From the NCBI RefSeq assembly GCF_011045215.1, contig NZ_CP049201.1: a stretch of DNA of 64,000 nucleotides. The stretch is one strand, 5' to 3'. Position numbers and translations under genes: made by a program. This stretch comes from Escherichia coli (GTDB lineage: Bacteria; Pseudomonadota; Gammaproteobacteria; Enterobacterales; Enterobacteriaceae). Within the stretch, counting starts at the first letter, position 1; each line of letters begins with the position of its first letter. This document shows positions 1 through 37,689 of this stretch, in pieces. Under the pieces are notes generated by a model. It saw only the letters and a list, made by a program, of their open reading frames with translations. It was not told where the DNA came from and made no database searches.

Positions 1-155
1 ATACATGGAATATCCCCGCCCCGGCAATACTCAATTTTTGCAGCAAGATGAGTGTCACGCGGATAGAACTCCAGACGATACATATCCCCCAGGACATGCA
101 CTTCCTCAACCTGACGGCCATCTTTAGTTACCGTTATTTTTTTCAGTGCGTACAT
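1..155 (-). CDS. hypothetical phage protein, partial (runs off window start)
   Basis: Minus-strand ATG at 153-155 preceded by GGAGG with 5-nt spacer; open to position 1 (MYALKKITVTKDGRQVEEVHVLGDMYRLEFYPRD...); under 60 aa inside window so absent from ORF track. Confidence 0.3.
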   Translation of the reverse strand, partial: MYALKKITVTKDGRQVEEVHVLGDMYRLEFYPRDTHLAAKIEYCRGGDIPC

Positions 156-222
156 ACGTACCTCCGTTCTTTCGTTTTTTGAGTAATAAAAAAGGCCGCC
201 ACAGCGACCTTTGCCAGTACGT

Positions 223-768
223 TTACAAACCAACGCGCGCTTTCATCCAGCCATAGACAAACGACTCATTGGCCTCGCGTTTCTCTGCCAGCTCCAGATA
301 ACGCTCGCCCTGCGTACAGTTCAGGGCTTTCACCAGTACCAGTTCACCATCCCTGCTGCGATTTTTCAGATATGCCCGTAACGCATTAAGAGTACGCGGT
401 CCGATGCGTCCATCTGCATCCATATCCGGATAGAGTTTCCCGCGCAGGTTAAAAACATTCAGCCAGCGCTGAAGCATTCTGGACGCCACGGCTGGTCCCA
501 TGTTCACGCCCGTGTCGCACAACTCTGCGGCAATATCCGGAGACAGATTCTCAACCTGGTCGAATCGTGGTCCGTACCAGTAGTCCGCCTCGAGTATTTC
601 CAGCGCCTGCCCACGCGTCAGGTCACGCATATCGCCCTGATAACCGTGTGCACGGGCAACTTTTTCAGTGATGCCCCATTTAGTCGGACCACCTTTATCA
701 TCCGGGTGATTGACGTAACCGCCCTCTTTTCCCAGAATTTCGTCAAAAATTTCATCTTTCGACTTCAT
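223..768 (-). CDS. phage endolysin, GH108-like lysozyme with peptidoglycan-binding C-terminal region
   Basis: ORF-track protein carries the IFDEILGKEGGYVNHPDDKGGPTKWGIT motif typical of GH108 lysozymes; start placed at internal ATG 766-768 preceded by GAAGG; last gene of lysis cassette. Confidence 0.75.
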   Translation of the reverse strand: MKSKDEIFDEILGKEGGYVNHPDDKGGPTKWGITEKVARAHGYQGDMRDLTRGQALEILEADYWYGPRFDQVENLSPDIAAELCDTGVNMGPAVASRMLQRWLNVFNLRGKLYPDMDADGRIGPRTLNALRAYLKNRSRDGELVLVKALNCTQGERYLELAEKREANESFVYGWMKARVGL

Positions 769-769
769 A

Positions 770-1060
770 TCAGCGCCTTCGTAATACAAGGATTTTTGAT
801 ACGTTCCCGCGTGCTCGTATCACCAGCACGCAGAACACCAGGTTAATCAGGACGACCAGCCAGTTACCGGGTGGAAAGCGACCACACAGATAACAAAGCG
901 GCGCAAAGGCATAAAGCAGCATCAGCAGCCAGGCCAGCCACGACATCAGCGGTTTATGTCTCGACTCACCACGACGATAAAAAAAGAGCGTCAGCACGAT
1001 AACCGTGCTTAACACCACATTCAGTAATCCGGGAAGGTTACTTAACATTACCGCCTCCAC
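770..1060 (-). CDS. small hydrophobic lysis-cassette membrane protein (holin/antiholin-like accessory)
   Basis: 96-aa ORF with two long hydrophobic stretches, wedged between the putative holin and the endolysin with short overlaps. Confidence 0.45.
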   Translation of the reverse strand: MEAVMLSNLPGLLNVVLSTVIVLTLFFYRRGESRHKPLMSWLAWLLMLLYAFAPLCYLCGRFPPGNWLVVLINLVFCVLVIRARGNVSKILVLRRR

Positions 1061-1427
1061 CCCGCAGACGGGAGAACAGCCCGGATACCAGCGATGCGAT
1101 ATCCTGCTGGTGGATGAATGAGAGAATCTTCACTGACACCACCGATACCAGTACCGCACAAAGCGCGTCGAGAGATGTGCTGTGGAGATTCAGTTTTTCA
1201 ACCAGGTAAGACGCCATCACATCCGCCCCCAGCACGCCAACAATGAACGACACCAGAAAATGCGCTGCCACACGCCAGACAGAAATCTTCTGTGGTATCG
1301 TGGCCACAAACAGCGCCCCTGCGAATGCACCAAACACAATCCCGAAATCCGTTCCGGTAAACAGCCCGAATACCGTCGCCCCGCCGAGCGCCGCAGCCGT
1401 GCCGGAACCGGATAAGGGTTCAGACAT
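1038..1427 (-). CDS. putative phage holin
   Basis: Track ORF 1038..1640 trimmed to ATG at 1425-1427 preceded by AGGAGA; 129 aa, glycine-rich hydrophobic segments (GTAAALGGATVFGLFTG...), directly upstream of endolysin. Confidence 0.6.
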   Translation of the reverse strand: MSEPLSGSGTAAALGGATVFGLFTGTDFGIVFGAFAGALFVATIPQKISVWRVAAHFLVSFIVGVLGADVMASYLVEKLNLHSTSLDALCAVLVSVVSVKILSFIHQQDIASLVSGLFSRLRGGGGNVK

Positions 1428-1443
1428 ACTTTTTCTCCTGTAA

Positions 1444-1468
1444 ATAAAAAAGGGCCGCTGTCGGCCCG
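1444..1468 (-). terminator. hairpin plus T-run on minus strand, immediately upstream of holin (tR'-like)
   Basis: GGGCCG-ctgt-CGGCCC stem at 1453-1468 flanked by A-runs on plus strand, so T-run follows hairpin on minus strand. Confidence 0.4.
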
Positions 1469-1597
1469 TAAAAAAACACCCCGTCAAAGGCACCCGCAGA
1501 TGCCTTTTGTGTGGTGTTATCTGGTGTTTTCTGATGTGGTGTGTGCAGGACACAGATGTGAAAAAGGTCCGCCGGTACGAACCCTGTGTATGGATAA

Positions 1598-1625
1598 AAA
1601 AATGCCCGTCATGAGACGGGCTAAC
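1598..1625 (-). terminator. second hairpin plus T-run on minus strand
   Basis: GCCCGTC-atga-GACGGGC preceded on plus strand by AAAAAAA (T-run after hairpin on minus strand). Confidence 0.35.
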
Positions 1626-1675
1626 GCATTCATCATGCAAGAGTTAAGCAGGATTACCTGTATCGAATTATCGGT

Positions 1676-1751
1676 ATCAGAATGAGTCGTCAACCTGCAA
1701 CGCAATTCTGACGAATCGTAGACCCCGGTTCAGGCGACGACTCATTCTGAT
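1676..1751. repeat. 16-bp perfect inverted repeat with 44-nt spacer
   Basis: ATCAGAATGAGTCGTC at 1676-1691 and GACGACTCATTCTGAT at 1736-1751 are exact reverse complements. Confidence 0.7.
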
Positions 1752-1906
1752 AACGCATACCATTAACAATGTAAAAAACACAGCACTGAAACTGTAACCG
1801 GCCAGGCATTACAGAATGAAGAAAATAAAGTGTCCGCAACCAGATTCTTCACGAAAATTCGTCAGTGCTGATAAAGCTATGACTCATCAGTTTTACTGGA
1901 GAACGG

Positions 1907-1982
1907 TGGCGGGAATCGAACCCACATCATCAGCCTGGAAAGCTGAGGTAATAGCCATTATACGATACCCGCATACTGTGCT
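1907..1982 (-). tRNA. tRNA-Gly(UCC)-like pseudo-tRNA; acceptor 3' strand not complementary
   Basis: Minus strand reads GCGGGTATCGTATAATGGCTATTACCTCAGCTTTCCAGGCTGATGATGTGGGTTCGATTCCCGC, near-identical to E. coli glyT through D, anticodon (loop TTTCCAG) and T arms, but then continues CACCGTTCTCCA, which cannot pair with the 5' GCGGGTA. Confidence 0.4.
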
Positions 1983-2190
1983 GGCTTCCGGAATCACACG
2001 AATTACCGGGAAAGCCAGCACTGGTCTTTCCGGTGGCAAGCAACACCCCTGTGAACATAAAGACAACCACCTTCCGGACCAGTCAGAATACTAACGACAG
2101 TTTTTCAGACATCAAAAATATATTTGGTGTTCAGTTTTAAATATGTGTATACATCTGTATCAGAAATATACAACTTATATCATCACTGAA

Positions 2191-3237
2191 TTAAAAATCT
2201 TTCGTTATTTCTCTGACCGTCTGATTAAAACGTTCCTCTTCCAGTTCCACGCCAATCGCCCTGCGTCCCAGCAACAGTGCCGCTTTTATCGTGGAACCTG
2301 ACCCCATAAAAAAATCTGCGACCAAATCGCCTGGACGGCTGCTGGCAGTAATTATCTGACGCAACATATCCGCCGGTTTTTCACAGGGATGTTTGCCCGG
2401 ATAATACTGCACGGGCTTGTGCGTCCAGACATCCGTATAAGGAACGACAGCCGATACGGAAAAATAACGCCGCAGTGATTTGTATTCCTCCAGCAGGCTG
2501 ACATATTGCCGGTTCAGTTCGCTGTATGTGCTGACCAGCTGGTGATGTGGCTGCTCCAGTTCACCGCGCTGGTGTTTTTCTGCCGCCACACGTGCAAACA
2601 GCGCCTGCAGTTTACTGTAATCGGCCTCATTCGGTAACTGCCACTGACTGGTACCAAACCAGTGCGAAACCATGTTTTTCTTTCCGGTGGCTTCAGCTAT
2701 CTGTTTTGACGTTATCCCCAGTGATTCACGCGCATCACGGAAGTAAGAAATCAGCGGGGCCATCACGTGCTGTTTAAGCTCGCGCCCCTTTGCCGCATAG
2801 CCGTCATTTTTTGGCTGGTATGGCCCCTGATAATGTTCAGCAAACAGAATGCGCTCTGTTGCCGGGAAATACGCCCGCAGGCTTTCCTTGTTGCACCCGT
2901 TCCAGCGTCCGGACGGCTTCGCCCAGATAATGTGGTTCAGCACATTAAAGCGCTCACGCATCATGATTTCGGTGTCAGATGCCAGGCGATGACCACAGAA
3001 CAGGTAAAGACTTCCGGCAGGCTTCAGTACCCGCCAGAACTGCGCCAGACATCGGTCCAGCCATTGCAGGTAATCATCGTCGCCCTTCCACTGGTTATCC
3101 CAGCCCTCGGGCTTCACTTTAAAGTATGGCGGGTCTGTGACTATCAGATCGACAGAGTTTTCCGGTAATGTCCGGATAAATTCCAGGCAATCCGCGTTGA
3201 TTAACTCACAACTGGATATTTTTACAGTATTAGCCAT
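2191..3237 (-). CDS. DNA methyltransferase (N6-adenine or N4-cytosine type), orphan
   Basis: 348 aa with DPPY motif near N-terminus (LIVTDPPYF) and FxGxG AdoMet motif near C-terminus (FFMGSGST); no nuclease recognised alongside. Confidence 0.85.
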   Translation of the reverse strand: MANTVKISSCELINADCLEFIRTLPENSVDLIVTDPPYFKVKPEGWDNQWKGDDDYLQWLDRCLAQFWRVLKPAGSLYLFCGHRLASDTEIMMRERFNVLNHIIWAKPSGRWNGCNKESLRAYFPATERILFAEHYQGPYQPKNDGYAAKGRELKQHVMAPLISYFRDARESLGITSKQIAEATGKKNMVSHWFGTSQWQLPNEADYSKLQALFARVAAEKHQRGELEQPHHQLVSTYSELNRQYVSLLEEYKSLRRYFSVSAVVPYTDVWTHKPVQYYPGKHPCEKPADMLRQIITASSRPGDLVADFFMGSGSTIKAALLLGRRAIGVELEEERFNQTVREITKDF

Positions 3238-3387
3238 AGATCAATAAGCACTTCTCTGATAGGCTCATACCGCTTTTGCGCAAAGCAGATGGGCCTGAGG
3301 TTTGCTTGTGACCCCAACGCATGAGCAGATGGCTGGCAGGTGCCGCTAACACCCACCAGCCGCCCATTACCACAAATTAAAAAGCCT

Positions 3388-3585
3388 TCACTGCGAAAGG
3401 CGTCTGTAACAACCGAACTGATAATCTGCCAGACCCGCCATAACAAGCTGGGTCAGTATTAACTGGCAGCGTTCGCGTGAAAGGTAAGTATTCTGCGCAA
3501 TTTCCCCGACGGTCGCCGGTTCGGTGACGCTTAATTCATTAAACACCACTCTGGCGGTTTTGGTCATATCCTGCTGTTTTAGCAT
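3388..3585 (-). CDS. small putative DNA-binding protein (winged-helix-like)
   Basis: Track ORF 3388..3807 trimmed to internal ATG 3583-3585 (AGGGA upstream); the N-terminal extension looks non-coding; residues TVGEIAQNTYLSRERCQLILTQL resemble an HTH recognition helix. Confidence 0.35.
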   Translation of the reverse strand: MLKQQDMTKTARVVFNELSVTEPATVGEIAQNTYLSRERCQLILTQLVMAGLADYQFGCYRRLSQ

Positions 3586-3902
3586 GTCTTTTTCCCTATT
3601 CCGGTTAACGTGACATACCAATAACTCTTGTCTGAAAAGCCAGCAAGCTGAAAAACCGGTATTCGTAACCACCAGCGCGTTTAACGTACTGCACCACTTT
3701 TCGGGCACAAAAAACCCGCCTAACGGCGAGCTTAAGCTGTGTAGCGAAGTAACCACTCTTAACACACTAAGCGAAAAAATGCGGACCGCGTTAGTGATTT
3801 TTAGCAAGTTTTGCTTTATTTTTCCTACGTACAGTAAAAATAAGAAATCAATTCCAGCCAGGCTGGCTGAGTTAACACAGGTCTTAGAATGAGGGAACTT
3901 CT

Positions 3903-4913
3903 TTGTACGAAATACATTACGACGTTGAGTCTGAACAGCAAGCTTTTGAATTACTTGAACGTTACCTAAACGGACAAGCTTTACCCGAAAAAATTAGTTT
4001 CAATGGTTGGCCAAGTCTAACCATCAGGTTGACTGGTGAAAAATTCAACAAATCACTCACACCTTCAGTTATGAAAGGATTTGTTGAAATGCAATCGCAA
4101 CTCAATAAGTCTTATGCGCTAGCAAAGTTCGGAACTCCTGATGTCCGCAGGCTAACAAAAGAAGAACTTGATGCTTTAGAAATTGAAGTTACAGTAGAGC
4201 AAGGTTCATCTCTTGTAGAGATTAACATTGATGGCTTCCTAAGCAAGCTTACGCACGAACTGGTAGGGAAAATGAACGCCACAGAGATTGTATTTACGGT
4301 TCTCGGTGCTGCCGTTATATGGGGCGGTGTAACCGTCTTCAAACGCTATCTGGATAACCGTAAAGATACTCGGTTGGCTGAAATTGCTAAAGAAGGCGAC
4401 AAAGAACACCTACGCGCAATGCAAGTGATGACACAGGAGGAAACAAAACGCCTCCAAATCATCTCAGAAATGGTGGCTAAAAAACCTCTACTCGACAATA
4501 TGGATCGAATGTCTTATGACGCTAAAACCACCATGGTTAAATCTTTCGTGCGTTCAGATTCAGCAGAAATTGACGGTGTCACAATAGATTCAGAAACGGC
4601 AAAAGAGCTAGTAACAAATGCTCGTCGACGCTCAGTTGAAATGAGAATAGACGGTATATACCGTATCGAAGAAGTGAATAATACCGACCCCGAAAGCTTC
4701 AAAGTTAAGGTTCGAAAGGTCGATTCTGATCAACGTTTGACCTGCGTTGTTCAGGATATATTCCTTGATGAATCAGGGAACAAAGAAGCCTTACAGCGAG
4801 CTGAATGGGAAAGAAAGCCTGTGCATTTAAGCATCAATGCCAAACACATTGATGGAGATATCAAGTCCGCCGTAATTTTACATGTGAAAGATGTTGAAGA
4901 TAAGCCCGAGTAA
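3903..4913 (+). CDS. hypothetical protein with one central hydrophobic segment; AT-rich cargo gene, family not recognised
   Basis: 1011-nt ORF opposite to the late genes; TTG start 6 nt after GAGGGA (in-frame TAG at 3885-3887 excludes an upstream ATG); 36 G+C in first 100 nt by hand count; hydrophobic stretch EIVFTVLGAAVIWGGVTVF. Confidence 0.7.
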   Translation: MYEIHYDVESEQQAFELLERYLNGQALPEKISFNGWPSLTIRLTGEKFNKSLTPSVMKGFVEMQSQLNKSYALAKFGTPDVRRLTKEELDALEIEVTVEQGSSLVEINIDGFLSKLTHELVGKMNATEIVFTVLGAAVIWGGVTVFKRYLDNRKDTRLAEIAKEGDKEHLRAMQVMTQEETKRLQIISEMVAKKPLLDNMDRMSYDAKTTMVKSFVRSDSAEIDGVTIDSETAKELVTNARRRSVEMRIDGIYRIEEVNNTDPESFKVKVRKVDSDQRLTCVVQDIFLDESGNKEALQRAEWERKPVHLSINAKHIDGDIKSAVILHVKDVEDKPE

Positions 4914-4928
4914 TCGGGCTGTCTGGTT

Positions 4929-5309
4929 TCAAGATTCCACTTCGGCATCCATTTCTAAACTTACATCCAACATACTCAGGCAACCGTCGATAAACCCTTC
5001 AGCCATCTGTATCTCTATACGTATCAATTTCTCATCCTTCCAACGCGCCTTTGCAATCTTGCGCTTGGATATCCTGTATAAATAATGTGCCACAAGAAGC
5101 GAATGCTCATAAGGCCTTTTTTGCTTTAAACAAGCAAGACAACCTTCAATAATTAATGCGTCACTATCTGAACAAGCCAGGCGTTTCTTACTGGTATAGG
5201 GCAGAAGTCCCTTAAACCCGGCAGCTATAGGTGAATAGTCCACACCCGAGCTATCACTAGCCGCCCATGCCCCCCAACGCTCAAGAACCATCTGAATATC
5301 ACGCGCCAT
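4929..5309 (-). CDS. late-gene antiterminator Q (QuuD/DLP12-type)
   Basis: MARDIQMVLERWGAWAA...IAAGFKGL...LEMD matches the remembered QuuD sequence; sits after rusA as in lambdoid nin-Q regions. Confidence 0.75.
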   Translation of the reverse strand: MARDIQMVLERWGAWAASDSSGVDYSPIAAGFKGLLPYTSKKRLACSDSDALIIEGCLACLKQKRPYEHSLLVAHYLYRISKRKIAKARWKDEKLIRIEIQMAEGFIDGCLSMLDVSLEMDAEVES

Positions 5310-5670
5310 CGTTACCACCTGTAATTTCGTAAATCTTCACACCCAGCCGACCACCAGGTACGCGCTGACCGCGCACAATATTAATTTCATCAAACTGCTC
5401 GTCGTCGATAAGCAACCCCGCATGTGTCAGTGCATCCAGTGGTGCTTTCAGAATATTGTCCAGGTCACGACGGCGCTTATCCGGTGGCTCTGCAGTAATT
5501 TTTATTGCCAGCCTTCCGGACAGATTTAATTTCAGCCGCTGCTGGCGAACAATGAGCGCCACATCACGGCGATAACGCTCACCGGCTTTTGATACAAAAT
5601 ATGTGCTGCCACGACGTCGCCAGTAGGTGTTTACCGTCGGCGGGTAAGGCAAAACAAACTCTATACGCAT
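5299..5670 (-). CDS. rusA: RusA-family Holliday junction resolvase
   Basis: 123 aa; PPTVNTYWRRRGSTY and RRRDLDN motifs match RusA. Confidence 0.85.
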   Translation of the reverse strand: MRIEFVLPYPPTVNTYWRRRGSTYFVSKAGERYRRDVALIVRQQRLKLNLSGRLAIKITAEPPDKRRRDLDNILKAPLDALTHAGLLIDDEQFDEINIVRGQRVPGGRLGVKIYEITGGNDGA

Positions 5671-5682
5671 CAGTAACCTCTT

Positions 5683-6732
5683 TTACCCGAGCACGCCGGT
5701 TGCAAAGGCGTGATCAAGAAAACGAAAAATTAAATCAACCTGGGAACCATGCTTTTCTTCGAACGCCAGCGGATCCGCATGAAGTTCGTTGTGATGTTCC
5801 CGGCATAACGGTAGCGTGAAAATATCGTGGGATTTTGTTCCCATTCCGCCCTGACCATGACCAATCAGGTGATGGGGATCGTCGGCTGGCTTACCACAGC
5901 ACGCACACGGCTGTGTCTTTACCCAGCGTGTATATTTCTCATTTATCCAACGGCGACGTTTAGGTCGCTTCATGAAAGATTCCGGAGACTCCGGATCTAC
6001 GGCAATGCTGACCACCGTCTTTTCCTGTGGTGCGTTCTGTTGCTGGTGGGCGTGAGGTGGTAGCGCAATATTTTTTGTGCGCTGCTTCAGTATGCTGGTA
6101 GCTGTCTGCTCTCCCGGTACGATGTCGCTTTCGCGGTATACTGAGTGGATTTTTTCACCCGGAAGCTTCAGGATTCGACGCGCCATATTTTCGGTCATGG
6201 CATCCACTACATCATTTACAGCAGCCCAGCAGTACAGTTCAGCCAGCGATAATTCCCGCTCCTGTGTACCGCTTATTGCGTGACGTATGACGTCAATCAT
6301 CCAGGCTGTCAGATTTTGTTGAGCAAGCTGCCCGAGTGATTCGGAGGTCTGGTCACGCAGCTGGTTGTCGCAGTGCCAGCACAACACCATCGCGCCGGTG
6401 CCGTAACGATGTATGACGGTTTCACTGTGATGATAGTCACCATGAGGCCACTGGCAGGATTTGACATGACGCAACAGCCAGTCAGACAGTGCGCCAGCGC
6501 CGCCAGCAGCACGAATCACCCGCTCATCGCTGAAAAATGGCAGTAATGATTTATCTTCCGCCAGCGGCTGGCGAACAGCAGGAACAACTCCGAACGGCAG
6601 ACCGCGCATGCTTTTCGGTTCCGGTTCCACCAGCACTCGAGGGTTATGAAATACCTGCATGGATTCACGACCAGGCTTAAGGACCACCAGCCCGAGTTCC
6701 GGTACCGGAACAGGTCGAAGTAATACCCGCAC
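5683..6732 (-). CDS. DUF968/YdfU-like protein with C-terminal HNH-type motif
   Basis: 349 aa, same length as Qin YdfU; C-terminal CACCGKPADDPHHLIGHGQGGMGTKSHDIFTLPLCREHHNELH. Confidence 0.75.
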   Translation of the reverse strand: MRVLLRPVPVPELGLVVLKPGRESMQVFHNPRVLVEPEPKSMRGLPFGVVPAVRQPLAEDKSLLPFFSDERVIRAAGGAGALSDWLLRHVKSCQWPHGDYHHSETVIHRYGTGAMVLCWHCDNQLRDQTSESLGQLAQQNLTAWMIDVIRHAISGTQERELSLAELYCWAAVNDVVDAMTENMARRILKLPGEKIHSVYRESDIVPGEQTATSILKQRTKNIALPPHAHQQQNAPQEKTVVSIAVDPESPESFMKRPKRRRWINEKYTRWVKTQPCACCGKPADDPHHLIGHGQGGMGTKSHDIFTLPLCREHHNELHADPLAFEEKHGSQVDLIFRFLDHAFATGVLG

Positions 6733-6733
6733 G

Positions 6734-7006
6734 TTACCTCCAGATGCGTTGCTGGAATGTGCGGGATGGACGCGGTGGGCGTTCGGAATAAGGGAGCCTG
6801 ACTGAAATTATCCAGTGTCGGAAGTCAGGGCTGAGGTCTTTCTGAAACTCGTACCCACGTCTGCGGTAGTTCTGTATCAGCCATTCGGCCTGTTCTTCAG
6901 TGCAGGGGTCATGCTGATACCAGTCATATTTGAATGTGTGAGAACGCCGCCCGTATCTGCTGGCAGGGGCGGCATCAGAATTGTTAATTTTCTTGTAATG
7001 CACCAC
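6734..7006 (-). CDS. hypothetical nin-region protein
   Basis: 90-aa ORF abutting the DUF968 gene on the same strand. Confidence 0.4.
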   Translation of the reverse strand: MVHYKKINNSDAAPASRYGRRSHTFKYDWYQHDPCTEEQAEWLIQNYRRRGYEFQKDLSPDFRHWIISVRLPYSERPPRPSRTFQQRIWR

Positions 7007-7072
7007 TACTATCCTCGTAATGGTGCGACAGACGCCAGTTGTTCAGGCTGGCTTTAACTACAACATTATAAT

Positions 7073-7267
7073 CTAGTCTTTCTTAATGCTGAAGTGACTG
7101 ACCGAATCCGCATGTGATTCTTTGGTGATCAGAATAACATCGGATGGCAATGGCATTACGATAAACTCACCATTCTCAAGAACTATTACTTCATAATTAC
7201 CTGGTATAGAAAGCGCAGCAATTAATTCCTTATCGTTCATAACCAAAATCCCGTGAACTTTAAACAC
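7073..7267 (-). CDS. hypothetical small protein
   Basis: 64-aa ORF co-oriented with the early-right operon. Confidence 0.35.
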   Translation of the reverse strand: MFKVHGILVMNDKELIAALSIPGNYEVIVLENGEFIVMPLPSDVILITKESHADSVSHFSIKKD

Positions 7268-7400
7268 CTCCCCTTAAGGGGACCATCCTTCTTCTCCCTG
7301 CGCGCCAATCAAGTAATGAGATTCTATTTCCCCCGTAATTAGCCTCAAGAACAACAAATCACAAAAACACAAAAAGCCTGTTTGATTAAAAATAATCGTA

Positions 7401-7424
7401 ACAAAAAACCCGCCGAAGCGGGTT
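7401..7424 (-). terminator. rho-independent terminator downstream of hok
   Basis: AACCCGC-cgaa-GCGGGTT hairpin at 7407-7424 preceded on plus strand by AAAAAA, so T-run follows on minus strand. Confidence 0.45.
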
Positions 7425-7492
7425 AAGTGCGGGTGCGTTGAGGATGCCTGACACATCAGAGGTGGCGAGGGATTTCTCCCCCGCCAGGTCTC

Positions 7493-7648
7493 TTACTCCT
7501 CAGATTCGTAAGCTGTGAAGACAGCGACCTCCGTCTGGCCGGTTCGGATTCGTACCTCGCAGAGGTCTTTCCTCATTACCAGTGCCGTCACTATGACGGT
7601 TAAACAGATGACGATCAGGGCGATTAACATCGCCTTTTGCTGCTTCAT
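7493..7648 (-). CDS. hok: Hok/Gef-family type I toxin
   Basis: MKQQKAMLIALIVICLTVIVTALVMRKDLCEVRIRTGQTEVAVFTAYESEE is near-identical to remembered HokD; AAGGAG 7 nt upstream. Confidence 0.85.
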   Translation of the reverse strand: MKQQKAMLIALIVICLTVIVTALVMRKDLCEVRIRTGQTEVAVFTAYESEE

Positions 7649-7705
7649 AGCCTGCTTCTCCTTGCCTTTCGGCACGTAAGAGGCTAACCTACGTTTGTGT
7701 AGCAT
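7493..7705 (-). CDS. mok-like overlapping reading frame
   Basis: In-frame N-terminal extension (MLHKRRLASYVPKGKEKQA) upstream of the hok ATG, as in hok/mok/sok loci. Confidence 0.45.
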   Translation of the reverse strand: MLHKRRLASYVPKGKEKQAMKQQKAMLIALIVICLTVIVTALVMRKDLCEVRIRTGQTEVAVFTAYESEE

Positions 7706-8102
7706 AGATTGGGCCTCAGATTAATGTTAAGCGTCTTGCCGGACGCGTAATGTTAACTGGGGCTTTTCTCTGTCTGCCTTACAGTGGCATGCCCGAGGCA
7801 GACAGCCTCAGGCACCCGCAACAATCTTACCGACACCGATAAGAAAACGCTATTTTTTATTGCCAGAACCTTCTGCCCAGGCTAATGTATCCGCGTCAGA
7901 ACGGCGCAATGCGCTCGCCTGAGATACGTTTACTTGTCATTGGTGGCAACAGATAACGGCAATTGTTGTTTCTGTTTGTTTCCTTCAAAAACCCCGGACC
8001 ATCAATCCGGGGTTTTTGTTTGTTATCCCCAGCGGCAAATCGAATACACCATCAGCGCCACCGCCATCGCAATTCCTGCCGTTGTGAATGCTTCAGGCCA
8101 GG

Positions 8103-37213: not shown

Positions 37214-37689
37214 GGTTAGCTCCGAAGCAAAAGCCGGATAATGTTAGCCATAAATAAGGTTGAAAAGACGCGCTGACAATACGCCTTTTGACAGCATTTT
37301 TCACCTCCTAACTACTTAAAATTGCTATCATTCGTTATTGTTATCTAGTTGTGCAAAACATGCTAATGTAGCCACCAAATCATACTACAATTTATTAACT
37401 GTTAGCTATAATGGCGAAAAGCGATGCTGAAAGGTGTCAGCTTTGCAAAAATTTGATTTGGATCACGTAATCAGTACCCAGAAGTGAGTAATCTTGCTTA
37501 CGCCACCTGGAAGTGACGCATTAGAGATAATAACTCTAATGTTTAAACTCTTTTAGTAAATCACAGTGAGTGTGAGCGCGAGTAAGCTTTTGATTTTCAT
37601 CGGTTAAGCAAATCATCACCGCACTGACTATACTCTCGTATTCGAGCAGATGATTTACTAAAAAAGTTTAACATTATCAGGAGAGCATT

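Follow-up and report, generated by a model that had tools for sequence, protein, structure and literature searches.

A conserved, structured RNA of an undescribed family is encoded at positions 1764–1594 (minus strand) of a 64,000-nucleotide Escherichia coli window, at the lysis end of a lambdoid prophage. A hairpin, a linker and a terminator make up the unit, which is about 165–170 nt in length. It is conserved as a structure, and selection on its hairpin is strand-specific and acts at the level of RNA. The surrounding region, 1444–1760, is the last 330 bases of a 2.3-kb cargo block that holds a small ORF, a DNA methylase, a tRNA-Gly and the non-coding RNA. The best explanation, which we consider probable, is a discrete RNA gene of about 165 nt followed by a row of terminators, with the late promoter upstream. 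Overall, the locus is an ordinary prophage arrangement that contributes one new RNA family of modest interest.

Positions 1–6800 of the window form the late-control and lysis end of the prophage and are read on the minus strand. The gene order in that reading is a DUF968 gene, rusA, Q, a 336-aa gene, a 65-aa ORF, the methylase, a tRNA-like gene, 1444–1760 and the lysis genes. The antiterminator Q (4929–5318, minus) belongs to the Q21/QuuD family (PF06530, E = 4.5e-50). The 336-aa cargo gene (phrog_6191; 3903–4913, plus) is convergent to Q and lies between Q and the candidate late promoter. Its product is hydrophobic in a central segment and has neither a PADLOC match nor a Pfam domain above threshold. 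In other prophages this slot is occupied by ompC/nmpC or by three unknown genes. The methylase (2191–3237) is in late orientation. The lysis cassette runs from 1427 down to 223 and encodes a first holin (PF16931; 1038–1427, minus, ATG at 1427), followed by a second holin (PF05449) and a GH108 endolysin. The same module of methylase, tRNA-Gly, non-coding sequence and PF16931 holin is found in E. coli prophages related to LT-IIb phage SerU, and its holin end (window 1400–1530) also matches Stx2e phage P27.

The original prediction placed a candidate late promoter and terminator at 1444–1760, with cargo inserted between Q and its promoter. The layout behind it is as described: Q ends at 4929 and the convergent 336-aa ORF ends close by, at 4913. 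A convergent gene immediately after Q means that the promoter must be elsewhere, and terminators do precede the lysis genes, as in lambda. Both points would suit a Q-dependent late promoter, Q-utilisation site and terminator at 1444–1760, displaced from Q by cargo, but this reading is very unlikely. A minus-strand sigma-70 scan of window positions 1–6000 returned no passing site. A relaxed scan of 1910–1430 gave only poor or wrongly spaced matches, none of which is conserved. Promoter prediction on the minus strand found no acceptable sigma-70 promoter and no promoter-like site in 1444–1760; intrinsic terminators are present, with no promoter upstream of them within that stretch. The methylase, the tRNA and the small ORF, all upstream, are already in late orientation. 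What stands of the prediction for this stretch is a set of terminators between upstream transcription and the lysis genes; the promoter and the Q-loading site do not.

The best candidate for the late promoter lies about 2 kb upstream of 1444–1760, at 3802–3709 (minus), and counts further against a displaced promoter. This candidate Q-dependent promoter and terminator is homologous to the DLP12 nmpC–essD sequence, and it was placed on that homology together with a Q-allele-specific block at 3802–3776 (minus), which co-varies with the Q allele. Downstream of the block are a −10-like TAGTGT (3769–3764, minus), in register with the DLP12 and C5 elements, and a conserved leader, GTTAAGAGTGGTTACTTCG, which begins at 3763 directly after the TAnnnT element. 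The conserved leader sequence GTTAAGAGTGG is likewise part of the 3802–3709 candidate. A strong intrinsic terminator (CUCGCC GUUA GGCGGG U6; 3730–3709, minus) follows about 50 nt downstream.

A convergent cassette straight after a PF06530-type Q is also present in HS13-1, C5 and DLP12. On its far side, the TAnnnT element reads TATGCT in DLP12, TATGAT in C5, TATTGT in HS13-1 and TAGTGT in the window, and all four loci have the element and the leader in common, with a strong terminator about 50 nt further on. The sequences upstream of TAnnnT form two classes that track the Q alleles. The Q proteins of the window and HS13-1 share 84% identity, and both promoter regions carry AAAATCACTAACGCGGTCCGCATTTT. 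QuuD and C5 Q are each 47% identical to the window Q, and both of their promoter regions carry GGTTTACGTACGTAAAAA. The assignment was made from homology and these four Q/promoter pairs; the DLP12 locus was taken from MG1655, and the locus in K-12 strain ER3413 is without the DLP12 lysis region. The DLP12 lysis-operon control region has been cloned as −121 to +650 (PMC7918800), which fits a start site far upstream of essD. Slightly further upstream in the window, at about 3826–3803, is a DLP12-like remnant, TTTAC(TG)TACGTAGGAAAAAT.

With the promoter at about 3800–3709, the cargo block and RNA unit would lie inside the late operon, between the late promoter and the lysis cassette. Cargo does intervene after Q, as first proposed, but the candidate promoter sits 2 kb upstream of the place proposed for it. 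From these loci we infer that the late promoter of QuuD-type prophages is located on the far side of the convergent cargo cassette.

Four stem-loops with U runs on the transcribed strand, here T1 to T4, separate the hairpin from the holin and fit predicted intrinsic (Rho-independent) terminators. T1 and T4 pass a consensus terminator scan; T2 and T3 fail the simple scan and were called from folding and conservation only. T1 (1594–1621, minus) has a 7-bp G+C-rich stem, a 4-nt loop and U7, and forms the 3′ end of the RNA unit. Its scan core at 1621–1604 reads GCCCGTCTCATGACGGGC then ATTTTTTT, and one stem pair covaries, from UA to CG. T4 (1444–1467, minus) has six G-C pairs and U6, with a scan core at 1467–1452 that reads GGGCCGACAGCGGCCC then TTTTTT. 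It ends 8 nt before the Shine-Dalgarno sequence of the holin, and in relatives its stem is kept and its loop varies. The scan cores coincide with the two hairpin-plus-T-run elements originally reported at 1598–1625 and 1444–1468.

T2 and T3, two extra structures with a hairpin and U run, were absent from that prediction and emerged when the 176 bases after the hairpin stretch were folded. The terminator-like hairpin T2 (1561–1585, minus) folds as AGGGUUCGU ACCG GCGGACCUU and is followed by a U run. Its stem is kept in relatives through a two-sided change, from GGUUCG/CGGACC to GGCUCG/CGGGCC. T3 (1469–1518, minus) has an outer stem AACACC/GGUGUU and an inner stem GGCAUC/GGUGCC, then U7. Between T2 and T3, the fold leaves a C+A-rich stretch largely unpaired (1519–1560, minus). 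The 10-nt unit CCAGAAAACA (about 1505–1535, minus), in the C+A-rich stretch before T3, occurs once in the window; relatives (L024, L029 and L007) carry it as tandem arrays of two, three and four copies. A reading of the C+A-rich stretch as a GcvB sponge was rejected; the duplex energy was no better than that of shuffles or random 60-mers.

The block at 1430–1527, which holds T3 and T4, occurs in 525 E. coli records and, at the loci examined, is directly upstream of a PF16931 holin. It neighbours three antiterminator types: PF06530 Q, a 221-aa Q and a DUF1133 protein. A block common to different antiterminator types belongs to the boundary of the lysis cassette and is no Q-specific site. Its sharing among prophages with unrelated antiterminators is a further point against a late promoter at this position.

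The inverted repeat at 1672–1691 and 1736–1755 has 20-nt arms that are 95% complementary (one mismatch), with 44 nt between them. Its exact part, read from the sequence, is 17 bp (1675–1691 and 1736–1752), so the 16-bp perfect repeat first reported is present and is longer than stated. By an arithmetic estimate, about 0.002 exact 16-bp inverted repeats with arms at most 120 nt apart are expected in 64 kb, and the whole window contains five inverted repeats with a seed of at least 12 nt within 120 nt. The longest in the window is a different, A+T-rich repeat at 37543–37671, with 21-nt arms that are 95% complementary and 87 nt apart. RNA folding of the repeat, as recommended with the prediction, gave a strong fold: the 176-nt stretch that contains it has a folding energy of −70 kcal/mol, compared with −43.8 ± 3.9 for shuffled sequences (z = −6.8). 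The result is a long hairpin of 84 nt (1672–1755, minus) with a helix of about 25 bp, in which 1755–1730 pairs with 1698–1672, and a small apical stem-loop.

Homologues of 1590–1800 were found in 24 of 5,426 complete E. coli genomes (about 0.4%), on 27 IMG/VR prophage contigs and on four E. coli plasmids. INPHARED phages gave no match to the RNA unit, and in the collections searched the unit is restricted to E. coli. A gapped pattern, CAGAATGNGTCG N{40,70} CATTCTK, was run over 298 Gb of genome contigs; it was too unspecific and returned no true homologue among the at least 120 matches listed. The strains listed come mostly from cattle or pig and include porcine strains named ETEC and relatives of LT-II/Stx2e phages. 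The RefSeq records examined carry no annotation of the unit.

The homologues occupy varied contexts: immediately 5′ of the holin-proximal block, which is the window arrangement; upstream of TerB/DUF3927 genes (L004 and L006); and on a plasmid, beside insertion sequences (L005). The L005 copy, at 3991–4215 of plasmid pPE041_2, is a 72%-identical hairpin and terminator, and the E. coli plasmids with this copy are of pig origin. The copy is far from any lysis cassette: an IS200/IS605-family tnpA precedes it by about 160 bp, and an EAL-domain gene follows. In every homologue, the plasmid copies included, T1 is about 45 nt downstream of the repeat. With a terminator always at this distance after a conserved hairpin, 1764–1594 looks like a small-RNA gene.

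Pairing is maintained across the alignment. Helix 1, with 25 consensus pairs, is 95.7% paired across 16 distinct homologues of 67–99% identity. Compensatory changes on both sides occur at six helix pairs among these 16 homologues, and the small apical stem covaries too. The covariation score of 0.232 is well above every slid control and exceeds the 0.145 of shuffles (0 of 500 reach it), a control that overstates significance because the homologues are interrelated. Non-Watson-Crick cells, counted in the minus sense, comprise 61 G-U and 3 A-C. This bias indicates that pairing is selected in the RNA of the late strand, and not in duplex DNA or in the opposite transcript.

A covariance model, R1, was built from twelve homologue sequences and matches 1764–1594 with a score of 179 bits. 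Beyond this, R1 matches the window significantly just once, on the opposite strand of the hairpin, and the window holds no second copy of the unit. No matches were obtained when R1 was searched against the PasD, DLP12 and HS13-1 loci. Rfam scans of 1–8000, 1400–2100 and 1585–1670 assigned the RNA unit to no family and, the tRNA apart, returned only sub-threshold matches driven by terminators.

Three roles had been suggested for the stem-loop: a Q-utilisation-like structure, a structured small RNA or a relic of a small mobile element. The second is favoured, as the pairing is conserved, covaries and is selected on one strand. Q-loading sites are DNA elements at the promoter (bioRxiv 10.1101/651190). 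The hairpin is selected as RNA, whereas Q-utilisation sites are promoter DNA elements, so it is not a Q-utilisation structure; the same point weighs against a late promoter at 1444–1760.

It is highly improbable that the repeat acts as DNA, whether as a protein-binding palindrome, a recombination site or cruciform, or the termini of a miniature mobile element. Its arms are long and almost perfect, and its copies are found in various settings, among them plasmids where IS200-family and other transposases lie alongside. Substitutions nevertheless keep the pairing and not the sequence, and the G-U excess is confined to one strand. Homology extends past both arms, to T1 and the trailer stem; the arm ends carry no direct repeat, and the repeat is single-copy in the window. 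The mobile-element relic is set aside on the same evidence, namely homology beyond both repeat ends, no flanking direct repeat and selection on the RNA strand.

A coding role was also considered. An ATG-initiated frame of 28 codons, beginning at 1762 on the minus strand, runs through the window hairpin and could in principle encode a small toxic or regulatory peptide. We regard this as extremely improbable. The frame is broken by one-base and multi-base indels among close relatives (L001, L029 and L036) and has no ribosome-binding site, and conservation follows base pairing, not codons. A 1-nt loop indel between the window and L001 rules out coding.

Upstream of the unit, a tRNA-Gly(UCC) with a damaged acceptor stem lies at 1902–1972 (minus; Rfam, 36.4 bits); ARAGORN found no tRNA at these positions. 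Set against intact copies (L001, L002 and L028), it lacks 1 nt and has C changed to T in the 3′ acceptor strand, which together leave three mismatches. The window copy is probably a pseudogene. Immediately 5′ of the tRNA, in window 1978–2036, is a 10-bp hairpin, GTGCTGGCTT / AAGCCAGCAC. Within this stretch, 24 nt (2013–2036) match the terminator region of PasA, an EPEC small RNA, at 87.5% identity (E = 0.07).

The tRNA trailer (1773–1870, minus) immediately precedes the hairpin unit, and the two are conserved together. The invariant stem CAGCACUG/CAGUGCUG, with a U run, closes the trailer and is here called T0; the trailer fold is weak alone (z = −1.1). The tRNA, trailer, hairpin and T1 are conserved as a single block. 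Pairing of the invariant trailer sequence UCAUUCUG with the 5′ arm of the hairpin was tried and rejected; it shows no covariation, and a change in L007 is uncompensated.

Conservation of this block as a whole is the main reason to weigh a cis-acting alternative, which is rather doubtful. The hairpin could govern how longer transcripts are processed or how stable they are, as an RNase III site within the tRNA trailer or the late transcript. It would separate cargo RNA from lysis mRNA or set half-lives, like the RNase III sites of T7 early RNA or lambda sib. Near-perfect duplexes of about 25 bp are typical substrates of RNase III. Scans and alignment revealed no convincing or conserved sigma-70 promoter before the hairpin. 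Since no conserved promoter lies between T0 and the hairpin and the block is conserved whole, the RNA may be a processed 3′ part of a tRNA or late transcript. T0 is weak, so read-through from the tRNA promoter is plausible.

The distribution of the unit points the other way. The unit and its terminator are retained in loci with a decayed tRNA (the window and L004) and on plasmids away from any late operon, which counts against a purely cis role. Between the window and L004, identity is 80% over the RNA unit and 69.5% over the block with the decayed tRNA. A conserved linker and a U7 terminator, as in this unit, characterise stand-alone small RNAs.

The preferred reading is a non-coding RNA gene of about 165 nt in the direction of the late genes, which would comprise a near-perfect helix of about 25 bp, a linker and its own U7 terminator. 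The linker (1622–1671, minus; about 50 nt) is mostly single-stranded in the alignments and fold. Its conserved stretch just 5′ of T1, ACAUGAUGAAUGCGUUA, is a possible seed or Hfq-binding region. The build is that of a prophage-encoded, chaperone-binding small RNA on which RNase III and Hfq would act. RNase III would cut the helix and leave a 3′ fragment of about 70–80 nt. In the lysogen, T0, T1, T2, T3 and T4 would stop polymerase arriving from cargo and tRNA promoters, and the holin would stay silent. On induction, Q-modified polymerase from the upstream late promoter would read through all terminators to the holin. The unit would be produced as a separate RNA, and the terminators would serve as insulation.

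A more specific proposal is tentative: 1764–1594 may found an undescribed prophage RNA family, either as a short, RNase III-released, terminator-bearing RNA that acts on host or phage messages, or as a sib-like switch in lysis timing. In the sib-like version, the helix would tag late, Q-modified transcripts so that processing occurs just upstream of the lysis genes. A helix that is transcribed only on read-through of the weak T0 could act as such a switch.

Two further RNA features were detected in the window. A complete hok/sok type I toxin-antitoxin locus is present at 7643–7817 (minus; Rfam sok, 109 bits), with a Hok-like 70-aa ORF (7493–7705) beside sok. The stretch 7403–7484 (minus) gives a sub-threshold match to IsrK, a Salmonella prophage small RNA (30.5 bits against a cut-off of 50); it has a terminator at its end and is upstream of nin-region genes.

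Host regulation can be rewired by small RNAs that prophages encode in the cargo site ahead of their lysis genes, AgvB, AsxR and the Pas RNAs among them, and the unit is a further candidate of this kind with covariation support. The terminator row suggests how a lysis cassette may stay silent behind 2 kb of constitutively transcribed cargo. Placement of the late promoter beyond the convergent cassette should be useful for annotating QuuD-type prophages. Neither the RNA unit, nor the terminators, nor the promoter placement overturns current understanding.

The region resembles lambda pR′-qut-tR′ and its DLP12 and phage 21 equivalents in having terminators before the lysis genes that would be passable only by Q-modified polymerase. 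Unlike pR′-qut-tR′, 1444–1760 is without promoter, Q-binding and pause elements, and the candidate for these is 2 kb upstream. The terminators here are cargo and cassette-boundary terminators, not tR′. Like 3′ETS-leuZ and phage RNase III sites, the unit is a structured RNA directly after a tRNA, co-conserved with it and ending at the first strong terminator; this likeness is one of layout, and, unlike 3′ETS-leuZ, the RNA unit outlives the tRNA in several copies.

Prophage small RNAs are known to occupy this cargo site downstream of the late promoter, as the anti-sRNAs AgvB and AsxR do in EHEC prophages (RF02702 and RF02703; PMC4104026). There is a resemblance between the conserved 3′ module of AgvB and the 3′ part of the unit, which has a small hairpin, GCAU...AUGC, followed by GCCCG...CGGGC A U6. 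AgvB and AsxR are 51–60 nt in length with a conserved 42-nt 3′ module, in contrast to the unit of about 165 nt, and AsxR is antisense to the late (stx2AB) transcript, whereas the unit is co-directional. The AgvB/AsxR family model scores 16.7 bits on the unit against a cut-off of 56, and the linker is without the CACAACA motif.

The closest analogue is PasD, represented by PasD1 and PasD2 of EPEC E2348/69, with relatives EcOnc13 in EHEC and STnc100 in Salmonella (Rfam RF02076). The kinship is not one of sequence. Blastn of the unit against PasD1 and PasD2 of E2348/69 gave only short chance words, R1 did not match either RNA, and EPEC PasA, PasC and PasD showed no similarity to the window within 1444–1760. 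The STnc100 model (RF02076) scored 12.4 bits on the unit against a cut-off of 47, on the terminator only, and had no match at E ≤ 1 in an 8-kb scan. The hairpin is a near-perfect duplex here and irregular in PasD. Hfq binding and targets have been demonstrated for PasD. At 172 nt in length, PasD is encoded in late sense with DUF3927 on one side and the holin on the other (PMC8550237, table S6; bioRxiv 10.64898/2026.05.13.724894). Like PasD, the unit is found in a lambdoid prophage between cargo genes and the holin, in late-gene sense and at about 170 nt, and both fold into a 5′ hairpin of about 90–100 nt, a linker of about 45–50 nt and an intrinsic terminator with a U run.
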